From the IMG/VR virus record IMGVR_UViG_2718218305_000006: a DNA stretch of 64,000 nucleotides; one strand, written 5' to 3'. The position numbers and the translations under genes are program-made. The DNA is from a virus (taxonomy: Duplodnaviria > Heunggongvirae > Uroviricota > Caudoviricetes). The notes below the pieces were generated by a model. That model searched no databases, had not been told where the DNA came from, and was given only the letters and a program-made list of their open reading frames with translations. Shown here piece after piece: positions 2,489-47,889 of the stretch (the stretch's first letter is position 1; every line of letters begins with the position of its first letter).

Positions 2489-2514
2489 CTCAATCTGTTA
2501 TCCGGGGCTATATT
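2485..2514 (+). promoter_or_regulatory. candidate late promoter pR' (TTGACT-N17-CTATAT)
   Basis: -35 TTGACT overlaps the Q stop codon; 17-bp spacer; -10 CTATAT/TATATT. Confidence 0.45.
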
Positions 2515-2577
2515 CCTCACGCGCCAGCAAAATCTGGCGTCGGGATTAGCACCCCGGATGTTTACGGAGCGATATGA

Positions 2578-2597
2578 GACGCGCCCGCGTCTTTTTT
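2578..2597 (+). terminator. rho-independent terminator (tR'-like)
   Basis: GACGCG-CC-CGCGTC hairpin followed by TTTTTT, about 65 nt downstream of the candidate pR'. Confidence 0.5.
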
Positions 2598-2761
2598 CAT
2601 ATCGTTTGCACAGTCACATTCGCGATTTATGGCGGGCTGTGTGGGGGAGCCGAAAGGCTCGCCGGTTTCCGTACCCGGTAGTGCTAACCCCGCACAGTTC
2701 GCCACCACGATGATTAGCACCTGACGGTGGCGATAATGTCCAAATGTACGGAGTTATCGTT

Positions 2762-3319
2762 ATGACCACTCAGATTTCTGTCGAAACTCTTTCCCCAATT
2801 ACACACAACCAAATTCCCGTTATCACTACCGAGTTACTGGCACAGCTTTACTGTACCGAGATCAACAACATCAAAGTAAATTACACCCGTAATTCCGAGC
2901 GTTTTGTTGAGGGTAAACACTTTTTCAAGGTTGTTGGTGATGAGTTGAAAAATTTGCGGGTTACTTTAAGTAACTCACAAACGCCTGTTTCCCCCAAAAC
3001 CCGCTCCCTCATCCTCTGGACAGAACGAGGCGCAGCCCGTCACGCCAAAATGCTCGAAACCGATCAGGCGTGGGATGTGTTCGAAAAACTGGAAGACTGC
3101 TATTTCAGACAAAAGGATCCGTCAGCGCCAGCTTCATGCCAGAAAAGTTACGACACGCGAGTTCTCTGTTATCAGCGAGGCGGTGTCACTGTTTCCACAA
3201 TTCAGTTGCGGGATGATGATATTGTTATTTCCCTTGAGTCATGGCTGGAACTGGCGAGAGCCAATGGTTGGTTTGTTGTTCGCAGAGATAAACTGGTGGA
3301 AAGGCTGATGCAGCTTTAA
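2762..3319 (+). CDS. ORF6N-domain (antirepressor N-terminal-like) protein
   Basis: GGAG RBS 8 nt upstream of ATG; motifs NSERFVEGKHFF..LWTERGAARHAKML..AWDVFEKLEDCYF resemble the ORF6N/antirepressor N-domain. Confidence 0.5.
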   Translation: MTTQISVETLSPITHNQIPVITTELLAQLYCTEINNIKVNYTRNSERFVEGKHFFKVVGDELKNLRVTLSNSQTPVSPKTRSLILWTERGAARHAKMLETDQAWDVFEKLEDCYFRQKDPSAPASCQKSYDTRVLCYQRGGVTVSTIQLRDDDIVISLESWLELARANGWFVVRRDKLVERLMQL

Positions 3320-3477
3320 AAAAGTTCTTGCAATTTTAGCCATAAACTGCTTCAATTCCGGTACGCTTCGCAAAGCTGTATCGCGAGGCGAACCAAGCGC
3401 ATGAACTTTACCAGAACCCGCCATTGAGCGGGTTTTTTATTGCGGAATTAATTACGGACCGTTATTATTCTGCTCCC

Positions 3478-3553
3478 GGCCCTTTAGCTCAGTGGTGAGA
3501 GCGAGCGACGCATAATCGCCAGGTCGCTGGTTCGAATCCAGTACAACGCGCCA
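3478..3553 (+). pseudogene. chimeric tRNA remnant (tRNA-Ile 5' part, tRNA-Arg 3' acceptor strand)
   Basis: 5' 56 nt near-identical to tRNA-Ile at 44708; 3' ACAACGCGCCA matches tRNA-Arg at 44884; acceptor strands cannot pair; position 33 is G instead of T. Confidence 0.5.
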
Positions 3554-3567
3554 CACTTATTTTCCCT

Positions 3568-3593
3568 GGCTCGCTTTTGCGGGCCTTTTTTTT
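3568..3593 (+). terminator. rho-independent terminator after tRNA remnant
   Basis: GGCTCGC-TTTT-GCGGGCC stem-loop followed by a T8 run. Confidence 0.55.
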
Positions 3594-3659
3594 AAATGTC
3601 TCACAATTCAGGCGGTTGACTGTTGTCTGGTTTGCGGGGAGTTTGTTAAAAGAAACTGG

Positions 3660-3765
3660 CATGGTGAATCCCCCTGTGCGGAGGGGCAATCAGTGAGTAG
3701 GTATATGGGATAATCGCGGATTCAGGTGCTGGTACTGAATTCACCGGGAGGCACCCGGCACCATG
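3660..3765 (+). other. conserved 106-nt structured element upstream of nanS-p (copy 1)
   Basis: Bounded by CATGGTG..CACCATG; internal CCCCTGTGCGGAGGGG hairpin; second copy at 45760..45865. Confidence 0.3.
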
Positions 3766-4032
3766 CAAGAAAAAGAATGTGCATGCAAACATGCCCCTCT
3801 CCGGAGGGGCATTTTTTATGGGTAAAAAATGCCCGAATGGGTTCGGGCAATAGCATGAGATACTGATATTGTTGTGTTGTTATCGTGTGGATTTTAACCA
3901 GGGTTTATCAGGCTGCGCAACTGCGTGGCCTTTTTTCATTTCTTGGGCTGTAGTCCCCGTGTGTCATTCAGGCTTCCGGACTACAGCCCACTCCATATCT
4001 GATTTAATACACTATCCCGGCCGGGAGGAATA

Positions 4033-5979
4033 ATGACATTTAAACATTATGATGTTGTCAGGGCGGCGTCGCCGTCAGACCTTGCTGATGCACTTGCTCA
4101 AAAAATTCGTGAAGGATGGCAACCATACGGCGGGCCGTTTTCTTCGTATACGGATGATGGCGCAGCACTTATTCAGGCGATTGTCGCAGAAGGTGATGTG
4201 AGCACACCTGTTGTGGTGAAGCCGACAGGTGGAGAAGGTGCAGTAATCAGCGCCACCAGAGACCCGGAGTATTACTTTGTTGTGGTTCTGGCGGGGCAGT
4301 CAAACAGCATGGCATATGGTGAAGGCCTTCCGCTGCCGGAGACATATGACCGTCCGGACCCGCGTATTAAGCAGCTGGCGCGCCGCAGTACGGTGACACC
4401 GGGCGGTGCAGCATGCAAATATAACGACATCATTCCGGCGGACCATTGTCTGCATGATGTGCAGGACATGAGCCGCCTTAACCATCCGAAAGCGGACCTG
4501 TCAAAGGGGCAGTACGGTACCGTGGGGCAGGGGCTGCATATTGCCAAAAAACTGCTGCCGTTTATACCGGAGAATGCGGGCATTCTGCTGGTTCCGTGCT
4601 GTCGTGGTGGTTCAGCGTTCACCACCGGAGCTGATGGCACATACAGTGACGCGAGTGGTGCCTCGGAGAATTCAACCCGCTGGGGTGTGGACAAGCCGCT
4701 GTATAAGGACCTTATCGGTCGAACAAAAGCAGCACTGAAGAAGAACCCGAAAAATGTGCTGTTTGCCGTGGTGTGGATGCAGGGGGAATTTGATTTTGAC
4801 GGCACGCCCGGAAATCACGCAGCACAGTTTGGTGCGCTGGTTGATAAATTCCGTGCAGACCTGACGGATATGGCAGGTCAGTGCGTCGGTGGCTCTGCTG
4901 GCGGTGTTCCCTGGATATGTGGAGATACGACGTATTTCTGGAAGCAGAAGAACGAATCCACGTACCAGACGGTGTACGGCAGCTATAAAAACAAAACGGA
5001 AAAGAATATCCATTTCGTACCGTTCATGACCGATGAGAACGGGGTGAATGTGCCGACGAACAAACCGGAAGAAGACCCGGACATTCCGGGTATCGGATAT
5101 TACGGTTCGAAATGGCGTGACAGCTCAGCCACCTGGACGTCACAGGACAGGGCGAGCCATTTCAGCGCCTGGGCACGCCGTGGGATTATTTCCGACCGTC
5201 TGGCAACGGCGATTTTGCGCCATGCGGGAAGAGTGGCGCTAAACGCGGGGGCATCATCGACAGTATCAGAGGTGCGCCCGTCATCGCCTTCCGGTGCAGA
5301 AGCCACAGGCGTCACAACACTGCTCTCTTACCTTGCCAGCGAGTCAGAGGGAAGCCTGAAAGTACAGGGATGGTCAGCCAGTGGCGGCAGGGCAGAAGTG
5401 GTCAGCGATGCGGAGGGAACCGGAGGTAAGGCAGTGAAGCTGACCAAGGAAGCCGGTAAAAGCAGCTGGGTGCTGGAGTACGCCGCGGGCAACGGTGCGG
5501 CTCTGTTACAGAAAGGGGGGCAGATTCGCTGCCGCTTTAAGGTTTCGGGAGCGCTGGCTGCGAACCAGTATGTTATGGCGTTTTACTGGCCGGTATCTTC
5601 ACTGCCACAGGGCGTTGCCCTGACCGGAGACGGGGGGAATAACCTGCTGGCAGCGTTCTACATCCAGACAGATGCAAAAGACCTGAATGTGATGTACCAC
5701 AATGCGAAAGTAGCGACAAACAACCTGAAACTGGGAACCTTTGGCGCATTTGATAACGAATGGCATACGCTGGCTTTCCGCTTTGCCGGGAATAACAGCC
5801 TTCAGGTGACGCCGGTTATTGATGGTCAGGATGGCACACCGTTCACGCTGACGCAGTCACCGGTCAGTGCATTTGCGGCGGATAAACTGCATGTGACAGA
5901 CATTACCAGGAATGCGACTTACCCGGTGCTGATTGACAGCATTGCGGTGGAAGTGAACAACGCGGATGCCGCGGCATGA
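4033..5979 (+). CDS. nanS-p: prophage sialate O-acetylesterase NanS-p (DUF1737 + SGNH/SASA domain)
   Basis: 648 aa; GGAGG RBS; N-terminal MTFKHYDVVRAASPSDLA (DUF1737-like) and VVLAGQSNSMAYGEG SGNH block I; same slot as nanS-p downstream of stx in Stx phages. Confidence 0.8.
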   Translation: MTFKHYDVVRAASPSDLADALAQKIREGWQPYGGPFSSYTDDGAALIQAIVAEGDVSTPVVVKPTGGEGAVISATRDPEYYFVVVLAGQSNSMAYGEGLPLPETYDRPDPRIKQLARRSTVTPGGAACKYNDIIPADHCLHDVQDMSRLNHPKADLSKGQYGTVGQGLHIAKKLLPFIPENAGILLVPCCRGGSAFTTGADGTYSDASGASENSTRWGVDKPLYKDLIGRTKAALKKNPKNVLFAVVWMQGEFDFDGTPGNHAAQFGALVDKFRADLTDMAGQCVGGSAGGVPWICGDTTYFWKQKNESTYQTVYGSYKNKTEKNIHFVPFMTDENGVNVPTNKPEEDPDIPGIGYYGSKWRDSSATWTSQDRASHFSAWARRGIISDRLATAILRHAGRVALNAGASSTVSEVRPSSPSGAEATGVTTLLSYLASESEGSLKVQGWSASGGRAEVVSDAEGTGGKAVKLTKEAGKSSWVLEYAAGNGAALLQKGGQIRCRFKVSGALAANQYVMAFYWPVSSLPQGVALTGDGGNNLLAAFYIQTDAKDLNVMYHNAKVATNNLKLGTFGAFDNEWHTLAFRFAGNNSLQVTPVIDGQDGTPFTLTQSPVSAFAADKLHVTDITRNATYPVLIDSIAVEVNNADAAA

Positions 5980-32619: not shown

Positions 32620-32804
32620 TGACGTTCTCCGAAAATACCAAGTTCAAGAAGAGCAATTCGGGAAAGTATGGAATTATCATTGAGCAGATAAGGCTCATAT
32701 TTCCTCATGTTAATGGCATCTTCAGTAAACTCCCGGTTACTGAGCAGAACACCAATATCAAAACAACCTTCAGACGTATTAACGTTTGGTAATAACGTTT
32801 CCAT
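32616..32804 (-). CDS. dicB: cell division inhibitor DicB-like
   Basis: 62 aa, METLLPNVNTSEGCFDIGVLLSNREFTEDAIN.. matches recalled E. coli DicB N-terminal half; lies just downstream of DicF. Confidence 0.7.
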   Translation of the reverse strand: METLLPNVNTSEGCFDIGVLLSNREFTEDAINMRKYEPYLLNDNSILSRIALLELGIFGERQ

Positions 32805-32973
32805 TATCGCGTCCTCAACAATGAATTTTGTGATGCAGTGCCTGGTGCCTCCAGGTGACGTTAACCAGTTAACAATTAACGCCGGATACAGAGAATCCAC
32901 CCATAACACTGTTTTTGGTTTTAACTGTTCCGCGTGCGCTTAGCCGCATTCACCGCATCACAAAATTCACTTT

Positions 32974-40118: not shown

Positions 40119-40408
40119 CCTGGCCTGAAGCATTCACAACGGTAGGAATTGCGATGGCGGTGGCGCTGGTGGTGTATTCGATTTGCCGCTGGGGATAAAA
40201 ACGGTTTGCGGGAAAAGGATAGTTAAGTAGAATTGCTGCGGGTGCTTGAGGCTATCTGCCTCGGGCATGAACACCAACGGCAGATAGAGAAAAGCCCCAG
40301 TTAACATTACGCGTCCTGCAAGACGCTTAACATTAATCTGAGGCTCAATCCATGCTGAACACATGTAGGTTAGCCTCTTACGTGCCGAAAGGCAAGGAGA
40401 AGCAGGCT

Positions 40409-40564
40409 ATGAAGCAGCAAAAGGCGATGTTAATCGCCCTGATCGTCATCTGTTTAACCGTCATAGTGACGGCACTGGTAACGAGGAAAGACCTCTGCGA
40501 GGTGCGAATCCGAACCGGTCAGACGGAGGTCGCTGTCTTCGTAGACTACGAATCTGAGAAGTAA
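40409..40564 (+). CDS. hok: Hok/Gef-family type I toxin (overlapping mok-like frame from 40352)
   Basis: MKQQKAMLIALIVICLTVIVTALVTRKDLCEVRIRTGQTEVAVFVDYESEK parallels Hok (..LTRKSLCEIRYRDG..EVAAFMAYE..). Confidence 0.7.
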   Translation: MKQQKAMLIALIVICLTVIVTALVTRKDLCEVRIRTGQTEVAVFVDYESEK

Positions 40565-43965: not shown

Positions 43966-44679
43966 ATGGCTGTTGTCTGTTCAGTTATCATGGTTTGCTC
44001 CCCAATTAATATTTTTCTTGAAAAGGATACGTTGTCACTTAAGCCAGGCTCAGTCGTTCTGGCCACCAAATGCATCAGGGAGCTTTTCCTTATGCATTAT
44101 GGCAAAGTTAAAATTGTCGATATAAGCGAATCCGTCGTAAGTCAATATCTGGAAAGTCAGCATAAGCTGACGAGGACTCGTCTGACTGACATTCCGCTTT
44201 ACCTGTTGCTGGAACCCAACAATCCTGCGTTGGCTGCGGCTTTAATTACCAGCCAGGGATTTTCCGGAGAGGTCACGGATATGTTTCTTATGATGGCCTG
44301 CCTGTCTCTGTTTGAAACAGATGAACGGATGTCATTGTTTTTAAGTGGATGTTTATCCAGCATAAGTGCCAAAGTCAGGGCGATAATTCAGACAGATATA
44401 TCAGCAAGCTGGACGCTTGGTGCGATTGCTCTACAGTTGCATATGAGTGAGAGTTTGTTAAAGACAAAACTGAAAAATGAAGGGGGCATGTTCAGTCGCT
44501 TGTTGCTGGAAGAGCGGATGCGTGTTGCTGTAAATATGTTATGTTCCCGGTATGGATATGGACAGGCTGTAGCAGAAAAATGTGGTTATTCAAGCCGGTC
44601 CTACTTTATTTCTGTATTTCACCGCTATTATGGCTTCCCGCCAGACAGATATGTATCCAGGCAAGGGCTTGATTATTGA
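43966..44679 (+). CDS. AraC-family transcriptional regulator
   Basis: C-terminal AraC HTH (..SWTLGAIALQLHMSESLLKTKLK..RSYFISVFHRYYGFPP); located between Q and the tRNA genes. Confidence 0.7.
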   Translation: MAVVCSVIMVCSPINIFLEKDTLSLKPGSVVLATKCIRELFLMHYGKVKIVDISESVVSQYLESQHKLTRTRLTDIPLYLLLEPNNPALAAALITSQGFSGEVTDMFLMMACLSLFETDERMSLFLSGCLSSISAKVRAIIQTDISASWTLGAIALQLHMSESLLKTKLKNEGGMFSRLLLEERMRVAVNMLCSRYGYGQAVAEKCGYSSRSYFISVFHRYYGFPPDRYVSRQGLDY

Positions 44680-44997: not shown

Positions 44998-45129
44998 GTA
45001 TCTGCGCCACGCCCGGCGCATACCAACCACAGAGCCTTTCGGGGGTGAGCTTACGGAGTGGTCAGTGTGACTTTCTCTGTGGGCAGATCGCTCCCGGGCG
45101 TTGGCTCACCCACCCAAAGGAACGTCACG

Positions 45130-45561
45130 ATGTTTGGAATCTTCAAAAAGAAAACCCGCAGAGCGGCAACGGAAATTAAAAAGTTTGAAAAACGCGATCT
45201 GGCACAGGTGGTGATTAACGCCGCATACCTGGTGGCCTGTGCAGATGGTGAATGTGAGGCATCCGAGAAAGCGAAGATCGAACAGGTACTGCGTAATCAG
45301 CCTGCGCTGTCCGCGTTTACGTCAGAAATTAATGCGATTAGCGCAACCATTATCGGTCAGCTGGATACGAACTTTAAAACTGGTCGTCGTGCGGCGTTAC
45401 GTGAGATTGAGGATGTGAAACACGATACGCGTGAAGCGGAAGATGTGCTGGATGTGGCGGTGGCCATTGCGGAGGCAGACGGCGAAATTGAGCCGGAAGA
45501 GCGCAAGGTGCTGGAAGAGATTGCCGGTGTTCTGGGTCTTCGTCTGGAGAATCACCTGTGA
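45130..45561 (+). CDS. TerB-like domain protein
   Basis: 143 aa from an internal ATG; paired ..ACADGECEASEKAKIEQVL.. and ..IAEADGEIEPEERKVLEEIAGVLGL.. motifs typical of TerB-like proteins. Confidence 0.5.
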   Translation: MFGIFKKKTRRAATEIKKFEKRDLAQVVINAAYLVACADGECEASEKAKIEQVLRNQPALSAFTSEINAISATIIGQLDTNFKTGRRAALREIEDVKHDTREAEDVLDVAVAIAEADGEIEPEERKVLEEIAGVLGLRLENHL

Positions 45562-45725: not shown

Positions 45726-45759
45726 TTTTTTTGTTTGCTGTTTATTAAAAACACTTCTG

Positions 45760-45865
45760 CATGGTGAATCCCCCTGTGCGGAGGGGCGATCAGCAACCAG
45801 GTATATGGGATAATCGCGGATTCAGGTGCTGATACTGAATTCACCGGGAGGCACCCGGCACCATG
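45760..45865 (+). other. conserved 106-nt structured element upstream of nanS-p (copy 2)
   Basis: Same termini CATGGTG..CACCATG and core as 3660..3765, with a cluster of substitutions in the middle. Confidence 0.3.
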
Positions 45866-46038
45866 CTTTGCCACAAAAGTGTTGTTTCTGTTTTTCTCAA
45901 ACTATCATCGTTATCCCTTTATTTCCGGCTGCGCATGGCGCGGCTTTTTTTTACGACCAGCCACTGGCAGATGGTCATCCTGTGATTTGATTCCGGTTCC
46001 GGCTTTTTAACTCTGTTCCTGTACACGGGAGAAATTCG

Positions 46039-47889
46039 ATGTCGATTAAACATTATGATGTTGTCAGGGCGGCGTCGCCGTCAGACCTTGCGGAAAAGCT
46101 GACACACAAACTGAAAGAGGGCTGGCAGCCGTTTGGTAGTCCGGTGGCCATAACCCCTTATACCCTGATGCAGGCGATTACAGCAGAAGGTGATGTGGTG
46201 GTCAGTGGTGCAACTGAGCCGGATTGGTACTACGTCATCGTACTGGCCGGGCAGTCCAATGCCATGGCTTACGGTGAAGGGCTTCCGCTGCCGGATTCAT
46301 ACGATGCTCCGGATCCGCGCATTAAACAGCTGGCGCGCCGCAGTACAGTGACGCCGGGTGGGGCTGCCTGCAGATATAACGATATTATTCCGGCCGACCA
46401 CTGCCTGCATGATGTGCAGGATATGAGTACGCTGAATCATCCGAAGGCAGACCTGAGCAAAGGGCAGTACGGCTGTGTCGGCCAGGGGTTACATATTGCC
46501 AAAAAACTGCTCCCGTATATCCCGAATAACGCGGGGATCCTGCTGGTACCATGCTGTCGTGGTGGTTCGGCATTTACCCAGGGCGCGGAGGGGATATTCA
46601 GCGAGTCCACGGGGGCCAGCCAGGATTCGGCGCGCTGGGGTGTGGGTAAACCGTTATATCAGGACCTGATTGCGCGCACCAAAGCTGCATTACAGAAGAA
46701 CCCGAAAAATGTGTTGCTGGCGGTGTGCTGGATGCAGGGAGAGTTTGACATGAGCGCCGCCACCCACGCACAGCAACCTGCGCTGTTTACAGCCATGCTG
46801 ACACAGTTTCGTGCTGACCTCTCCGTGTTTAACGCGCAGTGCCATGGTGGCAGTGCTGCAGATGTGCCGTGGATTTGTGGTGACACGACGTATTACTGGA
46901 AAAATACATACGCTACCCAGTACGACACCGTGTACGGCGGGTATAAAAACAGGGAGAGTGAGGGCGTTTATTTTGTGCCCTTCATGACAGACGGTAACGG
47001 CGTCAATACCGCCACTAACGCGCCGGCAGAAGATCCGGATATTCCGGCATCAGGATATTACGGTGCGGCATCGAGAACGAATGGAAACCAGGTATCATCA
47101 AACCGCCCGACACATTTCAGTTCATGGGCGCGCAGGAGCATTATTCCGGATCGTCTGGCAACCGCTATTCTGAACGCAGCCGGGCGCACCTCAGCCTTCA
47201 TCAGTGGTAAGGCACCGGAAATCAAACCCTCGCCCGGCGGCAACACGCCATCGGGTCCGTCTGCAGATACGTCCGTTCGCACAATCTCCCTGCTGCCGGC
47301 AGCCGGAGAGGCTGCTGCGCAGGGCTGGAGCATTAAGGATGGCGGAATTCAGTTGTCAGATGGTGTATTTAAGATCACCAGGCAGAGCAATAAAACCTGG
47401 TCCCTGACGCATCCGGTGGATGACGCAATTACCCTGCTGACACAGGGCGGCAGACTGACCTGTAAGTTCCGCCTGTCAGGCGCACTGACCAACAATCAGT
47501 TCGGGCTGGGGATTTATCTGTATACGGACGCTCCCGTTCCTGATGGTGTGGCGATGACGGGTACCGGTAATCCGTTCCTGATGTCGTACTTCACTCAGAC
47601 CACTGACGGCAGAGTGAATCTGATGCATCACAGGAAAGCCGGAAACACGAAGCTGGGGGAGTTCGGCGATTACGGTAACGACTGGCAGACGCTGGAGCTG
47701 GTGTTCACCGCCGGCAGTGCCACGGTTACTCCGAAACTGAATGGAGTGGCTGGCCCGGCATTCCAGGTTATAAAAGACAGTCTGACACTGGGACTGAATG
47801 CGCTGACGCTGACGGATGTTACAAAAAATGCAGCGTATGGCGTTGAGATAGAAAGTCTGATGCTGGAGATAAATGCACCGGCAGCATAA
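46039..47889 (+). CDS. nanS-p: prophage sialate O-acetylesterase NanS-p paralogue
   Basis: 616 aa; MSIKHYDVVRAASPSDLA.. and VIVLAGQSNAMAYGEG; catalytic domain highly similar to 4033..5979, C-terminal domain diverged. Confidence 0.8.
   Translation: MSIKHYDVVRAASPSDLAEKLTHKLKEGWQPFGSPVAITPYTLMQAITAEGDVVVSGATEPDWYYVIVLAGQSNAMAYGEGLPLPDSYDAPDPRIKQLARRSTVTPGGAACRYNDIIPADHCLHDVQDMSTLNHPKADLSKGQYGCVGQGLHIAKKLLPYIPNNAGILLVPCCRGGSAFTQGAEGIFSESTGASQDSARWGVGKPLYQDLIARTKAALQKNPKNVLLAVCWMQGEFDMSAATHAQQPALFTAMLTQFRADLSVFNAQCHGGSAADVPWICGDTTYYWKNTYATQYDTVYGGYKNRESEGVYFVPFMTDGNGVNTATNAPAEDPDIPASGYYGAASRTNGNQVSSNRPTHFSSWARRSIIPDRLATAILNAAGRTSAFISGKAPEIKPSPGGNTPSGPSADTSVRTISLLPAAGEAAAQGWSIKDGGIQLSDGVFKITRQSNKTWSLTHPVDDAITLLTQGGRLTCKFRLSGALTNNQFGLGIYLYTDAPVPDGVAMTGTGNPFLMSYFTQTTDGRVNLMHHRKAGNTKLGEFGDYGNDWQTLELVFTAGSATVTPKLNGVAGPAFQVIKDSLTLGLNALTLTDVTKNAAYGVEIESLMLEINAPAA

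Follow-up and report, generated by a model that had tools for sequence, protein, structure and literature searches.

The 106-nt element at positions 3660-3765 is the 5′ structured domain, or folded core, of a small RNA of the STnc100 family (EcOnc27/sRNA103 in O157:H7). The family is already catalogued, and the element itself is known and represents no new kind of object; added here are a covariation-supported pseudoknot, a placement of the promoter and a broader map of genomic contexts. The element probably forms the 5′ domain of an independently transcribed, Hfq-associated, trans-acting sRNA gene, of which lambdoid prophages carry many copies as a ‘moron’. Its link with nanS-p is positional, a shared moron slot with no dedicated leader function. 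Family membership, fold, terminators and contexts were computed in the present study, and transcription, Hfq binding and trans effects are taken from published work.

The window, that is, the whole 64,000-nt stretch of DNA analyzed, holds two close copies of the element, each upstream of a nanS-p type esterase gene with the domain composition DUF1737+SASA+DUF6645. Copy 1 (3660-3765) lies 266 nt upstream of the esterase gene at 4033-5979 (plus strand), and copy 2 (45760-45865) lies 172 nt upstream of the one at 46039-47889 (plus strand). As read from the window sequence, copy 1 runs CATGGTG...CACCATG, with the ends CATGGTGAATCCCCCTGTGCGGAGGGGC...CACCGGGAGGCACCCGGCACCATG and the hairpin CCCC[CUGUGCGGA]GGGG. 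The 27-mer CATGGTGAATCCCCCTGTGCGGAGGGG, its first 27 bases, is found at 3660 and 45760 and nowhere else in the window, where shuffled sequences would be expected to yield none. The alignment of the two copies is gap-free across the element and shows six substitutions (3688, 3694, 3695, 3697, 3698 and 3732), five of them clustered. Downstream, the flanks diverge straight after CACCATGC; upstream, they are alike over only ~30 nt and differ beyond that. These comparisons bear out the first-pass annotation, which had reported the same CATGGTG..CACCATG element before both nanS-p genes, differing surroundings and a substitution cluster in mid-element. The closing stem proved one pair longer than had been given (G3659-C3766), and a third, divergent copy on the minus strand (32958->32832) had been overlooked.

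An Rfam scan of the whole window, one of the checks that the first-pass annotation had proposed, places both copies far above the gathering score of 47 for RF02076 (STnc100), a gammaproteobacterial sRNA family of Salmonella/E. coli prophages. Copy 1 is a full-length match (3630..3823, plus strand, 143.7 bits, model positions 1-206), and copy 2 (45730..45902, plus strand, 104.7 bits) skips 24 model positions; the core of copy 2, at 45759-45866, scores 106.9 bits with the covariance model built in this analysis. Orthologues from other genera, re-scanned with Rfam, all fall within RF02076. Helices P1, P2, P4 and P5 of both window copies agree with the family model, as does their prophage location, whereas the terminator agrees in copy 1 only, copy 2 lacking the adjacent terminator part of the model.

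The structured core of copy 1 spans 3659..3766 (plus strand), the 106-nt element with one additional nucleotide on each side, as delimited by MFE folding and covariation. The closing stem P1 pairs 3659-3666 with 3759-3766, P2 pairs 3671-3674 with 3683-3686 around the loop UGUGCGGA, P4 pairs 3718-3725 with 3735-3742, and P5 pairs 3744-3748 with 3754-3758 around the loop AGGCA. P2 was identified by MFE folding, and P1, P4 and P5 by MFE folding and covariation; all four are present in the MFE folds of all three window copies. The pseudoknot helix P3 pairs 3689-3694 with 3728-3733 and was identified by covariation; its 5′ strand leads into the variable loop L1 (3695-3717). In the alignment, read by eye, the P4 loop is in every case complementary to the 5-8 nt that follow P2, and covariation supports a pseudoknot in which the P4 loop would pair with this strand, a feature absent from the structure line of the Rfam model. 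The P3 strands are AUCAGU/GCUGGU in copy 1 and AUCAGC/GCUGAU in copy 2, and elsewhere they take forms as different as CUGGUG/CACCGG, UUUGAUC/GAUCAAA and GCCAGUC/GACUGGC, with 57 distinct duplexes in 62 unique combinations. The mean P3 duplex energy is -8.5 kcal/mol with a member's own loop, against -4.5 kcal/mol with the loops of other members and -3.6 kcal/mol with its own loop shuffled.

In a MAFFT alignment alone P3 is out of register, and a covariance model was needed to test it. The model was built with P1, P2, P3 and P5; 104 hits were aligned to it, and 100 distinct rows were tested. Across these rows, 94.5% of cells are paired, compared with 82-83% in shuffles (none of 500 attains so high a value) and 36-52% with sliding partners. 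Changes on both sides are seen at six of the eight pairs of P1. P3 is 92% paired with both-side changes at all six of its pairs, P3 itself being part of the model to which the alignment was fitted; the five outermost P4 pairs, which are absent from the fitted model, are 94.4% paired with both-side changes at 5/5. The covariation analysis that had also been proposed for the element thus supports P1, P3, P4 and P5 in 100 distinct sequences. Of the six positions at which the window copies differ, two belong to P3, where pairing is preserved (U3694·G3728 becomes C-G, and U3690·G3732 becomes U-A); of the others, one lies in the joint between P2 and P3 and three at the start of L1.

While P3 and P4 covary freely, the stems P2 and P5 and their loops are near-invariant across genera. 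The near-invariant frame consists of (Y)RUGGUGAAUCCCCCUnnGCGGnGGGG on the 5′ side and YYACCGGGAGGCACCCGGCACCAYR on the 3′ side, with 45-70 highly variable nucleotides between them. No conserved single-stranded seed is evident in the alignment. Tertiary base pairs between the P2 loop (GCGG) and the CGC before P4 were considered and set aside, as they are not kept in the KdgM subfamily described below; a small ORF within the element, with an SD-like GGAGG in P5 and the AUG of CACCAUG, was likewise rejected, the AUG being missing outside Escherichia (CACCACA). A correct fold shows which residues are free for target pairing and which mutations are structure-neutral; the P4 loop, for its part, would be locked by the pseudoknot.

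Both ends of the proposed transcript can be placed from sequence features. A putative sigma-70 promoter precedes copy 1 (3623..3652, plus strand), with a -35 TTGTCT (3623-3628), an 18-nt spacer and a TG-extended -10 TAAAAG (3647-3652); the motif read from the sequence of copy 2 is TTGATT-N18-TAAAAA. A strict consensus promoter scan lists neither of the two motifs. Orthologues of many genera carry TTGAC(A/G)-N17-TAnAAT at a fixed distance from P1, such that the start would fall at P1. For copy 1, we infer a transcription start at ~3659-3661, the first bases of P1. Because the spacing between these promoter-like motifs and P1 is constant, the conserved UUAAAA within the first 30 positions of the Rfam model is probably a -10 element, and model positions 1-29 of RF02076 probably represent promoter DNA and not RNA. 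At the 3′ side of copy 1, an A-rich linker (AAGAAAAAGAA...) leads into an intrinsic terminator (linker and terminator 3767..3818, plus strand; stem 3791-3812 followed by a U tract), corresponding to Rfam model positions 147-206. A second terminator-like hairpin precedes nanS-p of copy 1 (3910..3931, plus strand), the counterpart of which is the intrinsic terminator of copy 2 (45927..45953, plus strand; stem 45927-45945, GGCTGCGCATGGCGCGGCT then T8), located 60 nt after P1. A terminator thus stands between the element and the nanS-p ORF at both window copies. More broadly, 45 of 82 distinct copies have a terminator-like hairpin within 160 nt 3′ of the core, mostly 13-74 nt (chiefly 20-45) after it, and the terminator sequences are unrelated between subfamilies. 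The copy 1 terminator hairpin at 3791-3812 (GCCCCUCUCCGGAGGGGC) closely resembles the P2 hairpin at 3670-3687 (CCCCCUGUGCGGAGGGGC), a likeness that other genera do not show.

The genomic neighborhoods of the two copies are those of prophage late regions. Copy 1 is accompanied by a DUF1133/Q-like gene, isrK and C4 RNAs, an ORF6N gene, a degenerate tRNA and a convergent AgvB gene, and copy 2 by an AraC-type gene, tRNA-Met, tRNA-Arg and a TerB-domain gene. Given these neighbor genes (Q-like, tRNA and others), both copies are therefore located in the late-operon leader of lambdoid prophages. The prophages that carry them are stx-less. All four records of sequenced phages that were inspected have the element on the late-operon strand, with Q/tRNA/stx on one side of it and the esterase gene on the other.

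The third family member occupies a different setting. It fills the spacer between DicF and dicB on the minus strand (32832..32958), with DicF at 33030->32979 and the dicB start codon at 32803; its end is 29 nt short of this ATG. It scores 42.6 bits (E 1e-8) with our own model and 34.5 bits with Rfam STnc100, under the gathering score of 47. All helices are kept by compensatory changes in P1, P3, P4 and P5, with P5 as CCUGG/CCAGG, P3 as CAGUUAA/UUAACUG and P4 as GGCGUUAA/UUAACGUC. O157:H7 EDL933 matches the window at 100% identity across the dicB region, and of 5426 complete E. coli genomes, 3976 (~73%) contain the dicF-dicB spacer.

A pattern scan over one genome per species retrieved ~70 true members and ~25 chance hits. 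Members occur in Escherichia, Shigella, Klebsiella, Raoultella, Kosakonia, Enterobacter and Citrobacter, and further in Superficieibacter, Phytobacter, Trabulsiella, Leclercia, Kluyvera, Erwinia and Kalamiella. The first co-oriented ORF downstream (100 aa or longer) was identified for the copies, giving 65 distinct ORFs, of which 18 encode KdgM-family porins, 12 phage lysozymes and ~8 holins; 7-8 are of the nanS-p type, in Escherichia only, and the remainder are of other kinds. Because only 7-8 of the 65 are of the nanS-p type, the link to nanS-p is not obligatory. The first-pass annotation had suggested a leader or regulatory RNA for nanS-p. A conserved, structured regulatory RNA that regularly precedes nanS-p in Escherichia phages stands, and the dedicated leader does not, given the match to a stand-alone sRNA family, the promoter-like 5′ site, the element's own terminator and the 7-8 nanS-p genes among 65. 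That annotation had named as contrary evidence an element scattered over many unrelated loci with no connection to nanS-p, and the counts of 18 KdgM and ~20 lysozyme/holin genes come close to this picture.

Two of these contexts are distinctive in their architecture. The KdgM subfamily is a 124-nt variant found in Klebsiella, Kosakonia, Raoultella, Enterobacter and Citrobacter (L029 2083-2208, L035 1845-1970, L063, L064, L009, L021-L024, L032, L052, L060, L065, L071, L089 and L098). Its copies lie 40-200 nt upstream of the porin gene, with a divergent LuxR-type regulator upstream and a periplasmic pectate lyase gene after the porin. The leaders have in common a CUGC-loop-GCAG hairpin, UACCUUUGG and a Shine-Dalgarno sequence, and they contain no promoter-like site between the element and the porin gene. 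In most KdgM-type copies, and in this subfamily alone, N-CCA directly follows P1. NanC is a KdgM-type channel, and a sialic-acid theme joining nanS-p with the KdgM porin was considered; it was rejected because the order of porin and then periplasmic pectate lyase marks an oligogalacturonate locus. The second context comprises tandem arrays of two to five copies (three to five in several genomes) with differing variable loops, in prophage late regions just 5′ of holin/lysozyme/Rz genes (L085 5469-6546; L026 6384-7916; L087; L040 139-1622; L028 6373-6997; L037; L058). Each of the array copies examined has its own promoter-like motif and terminator.

Published data supply the transcript and its partners. 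In EDL933, 11 STnc100 copies are transcribed and show low ribosome coverage, and one of them, STnc100_4, gave a positive Northern blot (PMC5331693). As cited in PMC12711010, EcOnc27 (Tree et al. [quoted passage not shown] This sRNA is a member of the family to which the window copies belong and, like them, sits in the slot before nanS-p (loci L003/L004); its copy, however, resides in an Stx2 phage, whereas the window copies are in stx-less prophages and have a different variable loop L1. The EcOnc27/sRNA103 family is reported to be homologous to EPEC PasD, as a structural homologue. In EPEC E2348/69, the stability of PasD1/PasD2 is Hfq-dependent and RIL-seq partners have been identified (PMC8550237); per the authors, the sequence divergence is too great for BLAST, and the proposed seed regions differ. 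STEC outer membrane vesicles contain STnc100, one copy of which is located 75 nt downstream of stx2 (PMC12370729). In the literature examined, no validated direct mRNA target of STnc100/EcOnc27/PasD was found, and a full-text search for the core sequence under other names matched only a primer in the outer membrane vesicle paper. The AgvB/AsxR anti-sRNAs, and StxS as well, are encoded in the same late-leader region in EHEC prophages, but their sequences and folds are unrelated to STnc100. The family matters in that its copies adjoin stx2 and nanS-p, and in a machine-learning study HUS was best predicted by sequence variants that overlap the predicted STnc100/EcOnc27 sRNA downstream of stx2 (PMC12711010).

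These observations can be assembled into a model in which lambdoid prophages would carry STnc100 as a moron in the late-operon leader, between Q/tRNAs/stx and the lysis genes. A constitutive sigma-70 promoter, placed by its motif, would start the RNA at P1; on the evidence of covariation, the RNA would fold into a closed five-helix core with a pseudoknot; and an A/U-rich linker followed by the intrinsic terminator found in the sequence would set its end at ~160-200 nt. The U-tailed 3′ end may be the Hfq-binding end, Hfq binding being known from the literature, as is the action in trans on mRNAs that the model adopts. In the lysogen, the terminators would shield nanS-p and the lysis genes from the sRNA promoter, and upon induction Q-modified polymerase would pass them. 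Read-through by Q-modified polymerase is established lambda biology. Promoter-like sites at a fixed distance, terminators and arrays of self-contained copies support an independent transcription unit.

Several features of the core fit less comfortably with a seed-type sRNA. With P2, P5 and their loops near-invariant, it looks more like a protein- or ligand-binding RNA, no conserved seed is evident, and copies tend to be co-oriented with the next long downstream ORF (62 versus 24, compared with 37 versus 34 upstream, from crude ORF calls and non-independent copies). The element might instead be a cis-acting leader or attenuator, the core binding a host factor or small ligand and setting how far transcription from the element's own promoter continues past the downstream hairpin into nanS-p, kdgM, dicB or lysis genes, so that the catalogued ‘sRNA’ would be the terminated leader. 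This reading is improbable, although it draws on the orientation bias, on the aptamer-like conservation of invariant loops and stems with a covarying pseudoknot, and on the terminator that follows roughly half of the copies at a short, conserved spacing. It is also consistent with the 18 distinct KdgM genes preceded by the element and the common hairpin with no intervening promoter-like site, and with the copy that stops just short of dicB. Riboswitch and attenuator leaders resemble the element in how they work, having a closed, pseudoknotted multi-helix core with invariant loops, then a terminator hairpin and an ORF; they differ in that the element shows no conserved alternative pairing and no Rfam riboswitch match, and STnc100 is not known to bind a ligand. 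Inspection found no conserved, mutually exclusive pairing between core and terminators. One such antiterminator was considered and rejected: the 5′ half of the E. coli terminator, GCCCCUC, could pair with the 3′ half of P2, and the terminators of other genera are unrelated. The downstream genes, moreover, have no obvious common metabolic theme, arrays of copies that each carry a promoter-like motif and a strong terminator are more in keeping with sRNA genes, a lysogen would be harmed if a constitutive promoter fed transcription into the lysis genes, and trans effects and Hfq interactomes have been reported (PMC12711010 and PMC8550237). A narrower proposal is that the P2 and P5 loops and the pseudoknot form a receptor for a host protein or ligand that could act in cis at the kdgM leaders of Klebsiella, Kosakonia and Enterobacter, at dicF-dicB and possibly at nanS-p; we consider this somewhat less probable still. 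If it were true, what was catalogued as the sRNA ‘STnc100’ would be the terminated form of an orphan cis-regulatory RNA of wide occurrence. In the dicF-dicB spacer and the KdgM subfamily, the stretch between the RNA and the ORF that follows contains neither a convincing terminator nor a convincing promoter, pointing to a cis role in at least some of the family. With the same fold at the head of KdgM porin mRNAs and in front of dicB, the family may be more than a trans-acting sRNA.

The trans-acting sRNA gene is also preferred over three further readings. A tRNA-like processing signal, with P1+P5 as an acceptor/T minihelix, P2 as a D arm and RNase P or RNase E cutting the late transcript, possibly derived from the neighboring phage tRNA genes, is very unlikely: the topology is cloverleaf-like, with P5 continuous with the 3′ strand of P1, a 4-bp P2 bearing an 8-nt GG loop, invariant P2 and P5 loops, phage tRNA genes adjoining the element and the N-CCA of KdgM-type copies, but ARAGORN makes no call at the element, 3640-3790 yields no tRNA or other Rfam match to the core even at E<=10, the P5 loop has 5 nt where a T loop has 7, and the N-CCA tail is confined to one subfamily. 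A processive antiterminator of the HK022 put type would let polymerase ignore the terminators before nanS-p and would suit an element at the 5′ end of a unit in which terminators and then genes follow. It is scarcely credible, as the core model run against the whole HK022 genome with filters off gives a best score of only 8.2 bits (E 1.6), discrete terminated RNAs have been seen experimentally (PMC8550237, PMC5331693), and a lysogen would not survive constitutive read-through into its lysis genes. Least credible is a dispersed repeat of the ERIC/REP type without RNA function; the first-pass annotation had allowed for a small repeat element, with a core loosely reminiscent of ERIC-type repeats. 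The element is multi-copy and shares the 10-mer GTGAATCCCC with the ERIC core, and the likeness ends there. Of the ERIC core, GTGAATCCCCAGGAGCTTACAT ... AAGTAAGTGACTGGGGTGAGCG (the ERIC1R/ERIC2 primer sequences), neither half has a match in the window at up to 3 mismatches. The repeat reading is already refuted by covariation, five helices being kept by extensive compensatory changes; strand and prophage slot are fixed, and copies are transcribed (PMC5331693).

Additional features surround the window copies. The AgvB anti-sRNA gene (3824..3885, minus strand; RF02702, 96.5 bits) is a neighbor of copy 1 outside the element and convergent with it. AgvB, a short RNA, sponges GcvB. The AgvB terminator is located at 3849-3830 (minus strand), and within 3791-3885 the terminators of STnc100 copy 1 and AgvB stand back to back where the two sRNA genes converge; the ~120-nt module of copy 1 terminator and AgvB is missing at copy 2. 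Upstream of copy 1, the stretch 2508-3319 comprises isrK (2521-2597), a c4-a1b1 target, a C4 antisense RNA (2625-2709) and then the ORF6N-domain gene, downstream of the DUF1133/Q-like gene, an arrangement reminiscent of the Gifsy-1 isrK-anrP module. The degenerate tRNA at 3483-3553, tRNA-Met in RefSeq and without an ARAGORN call, has a partial Rfam match only (37 bits, model positions 7-64) and is flanked by terminators at ~3413-3440 and 3568-3585. In the region of copy 2, a sok RNA lies at 40240-40414, the AraC-type regulator gene at 43966-44679 and the TerB-domain gene at 45058-45561, between the tRNA-Met/tRNA-Arg pair and the STnc100 copy. Current annotations do not reflect the element: phage records leave it unannotated or overlay it with short hypothetical proteins, and RefSeq NZ_CP074756.1 (L104 3649-3792) carries no ncRNA feature and a partial pseudo ‘hypothetical protein’ antisense across the element, which an ncRNA feature should replace.
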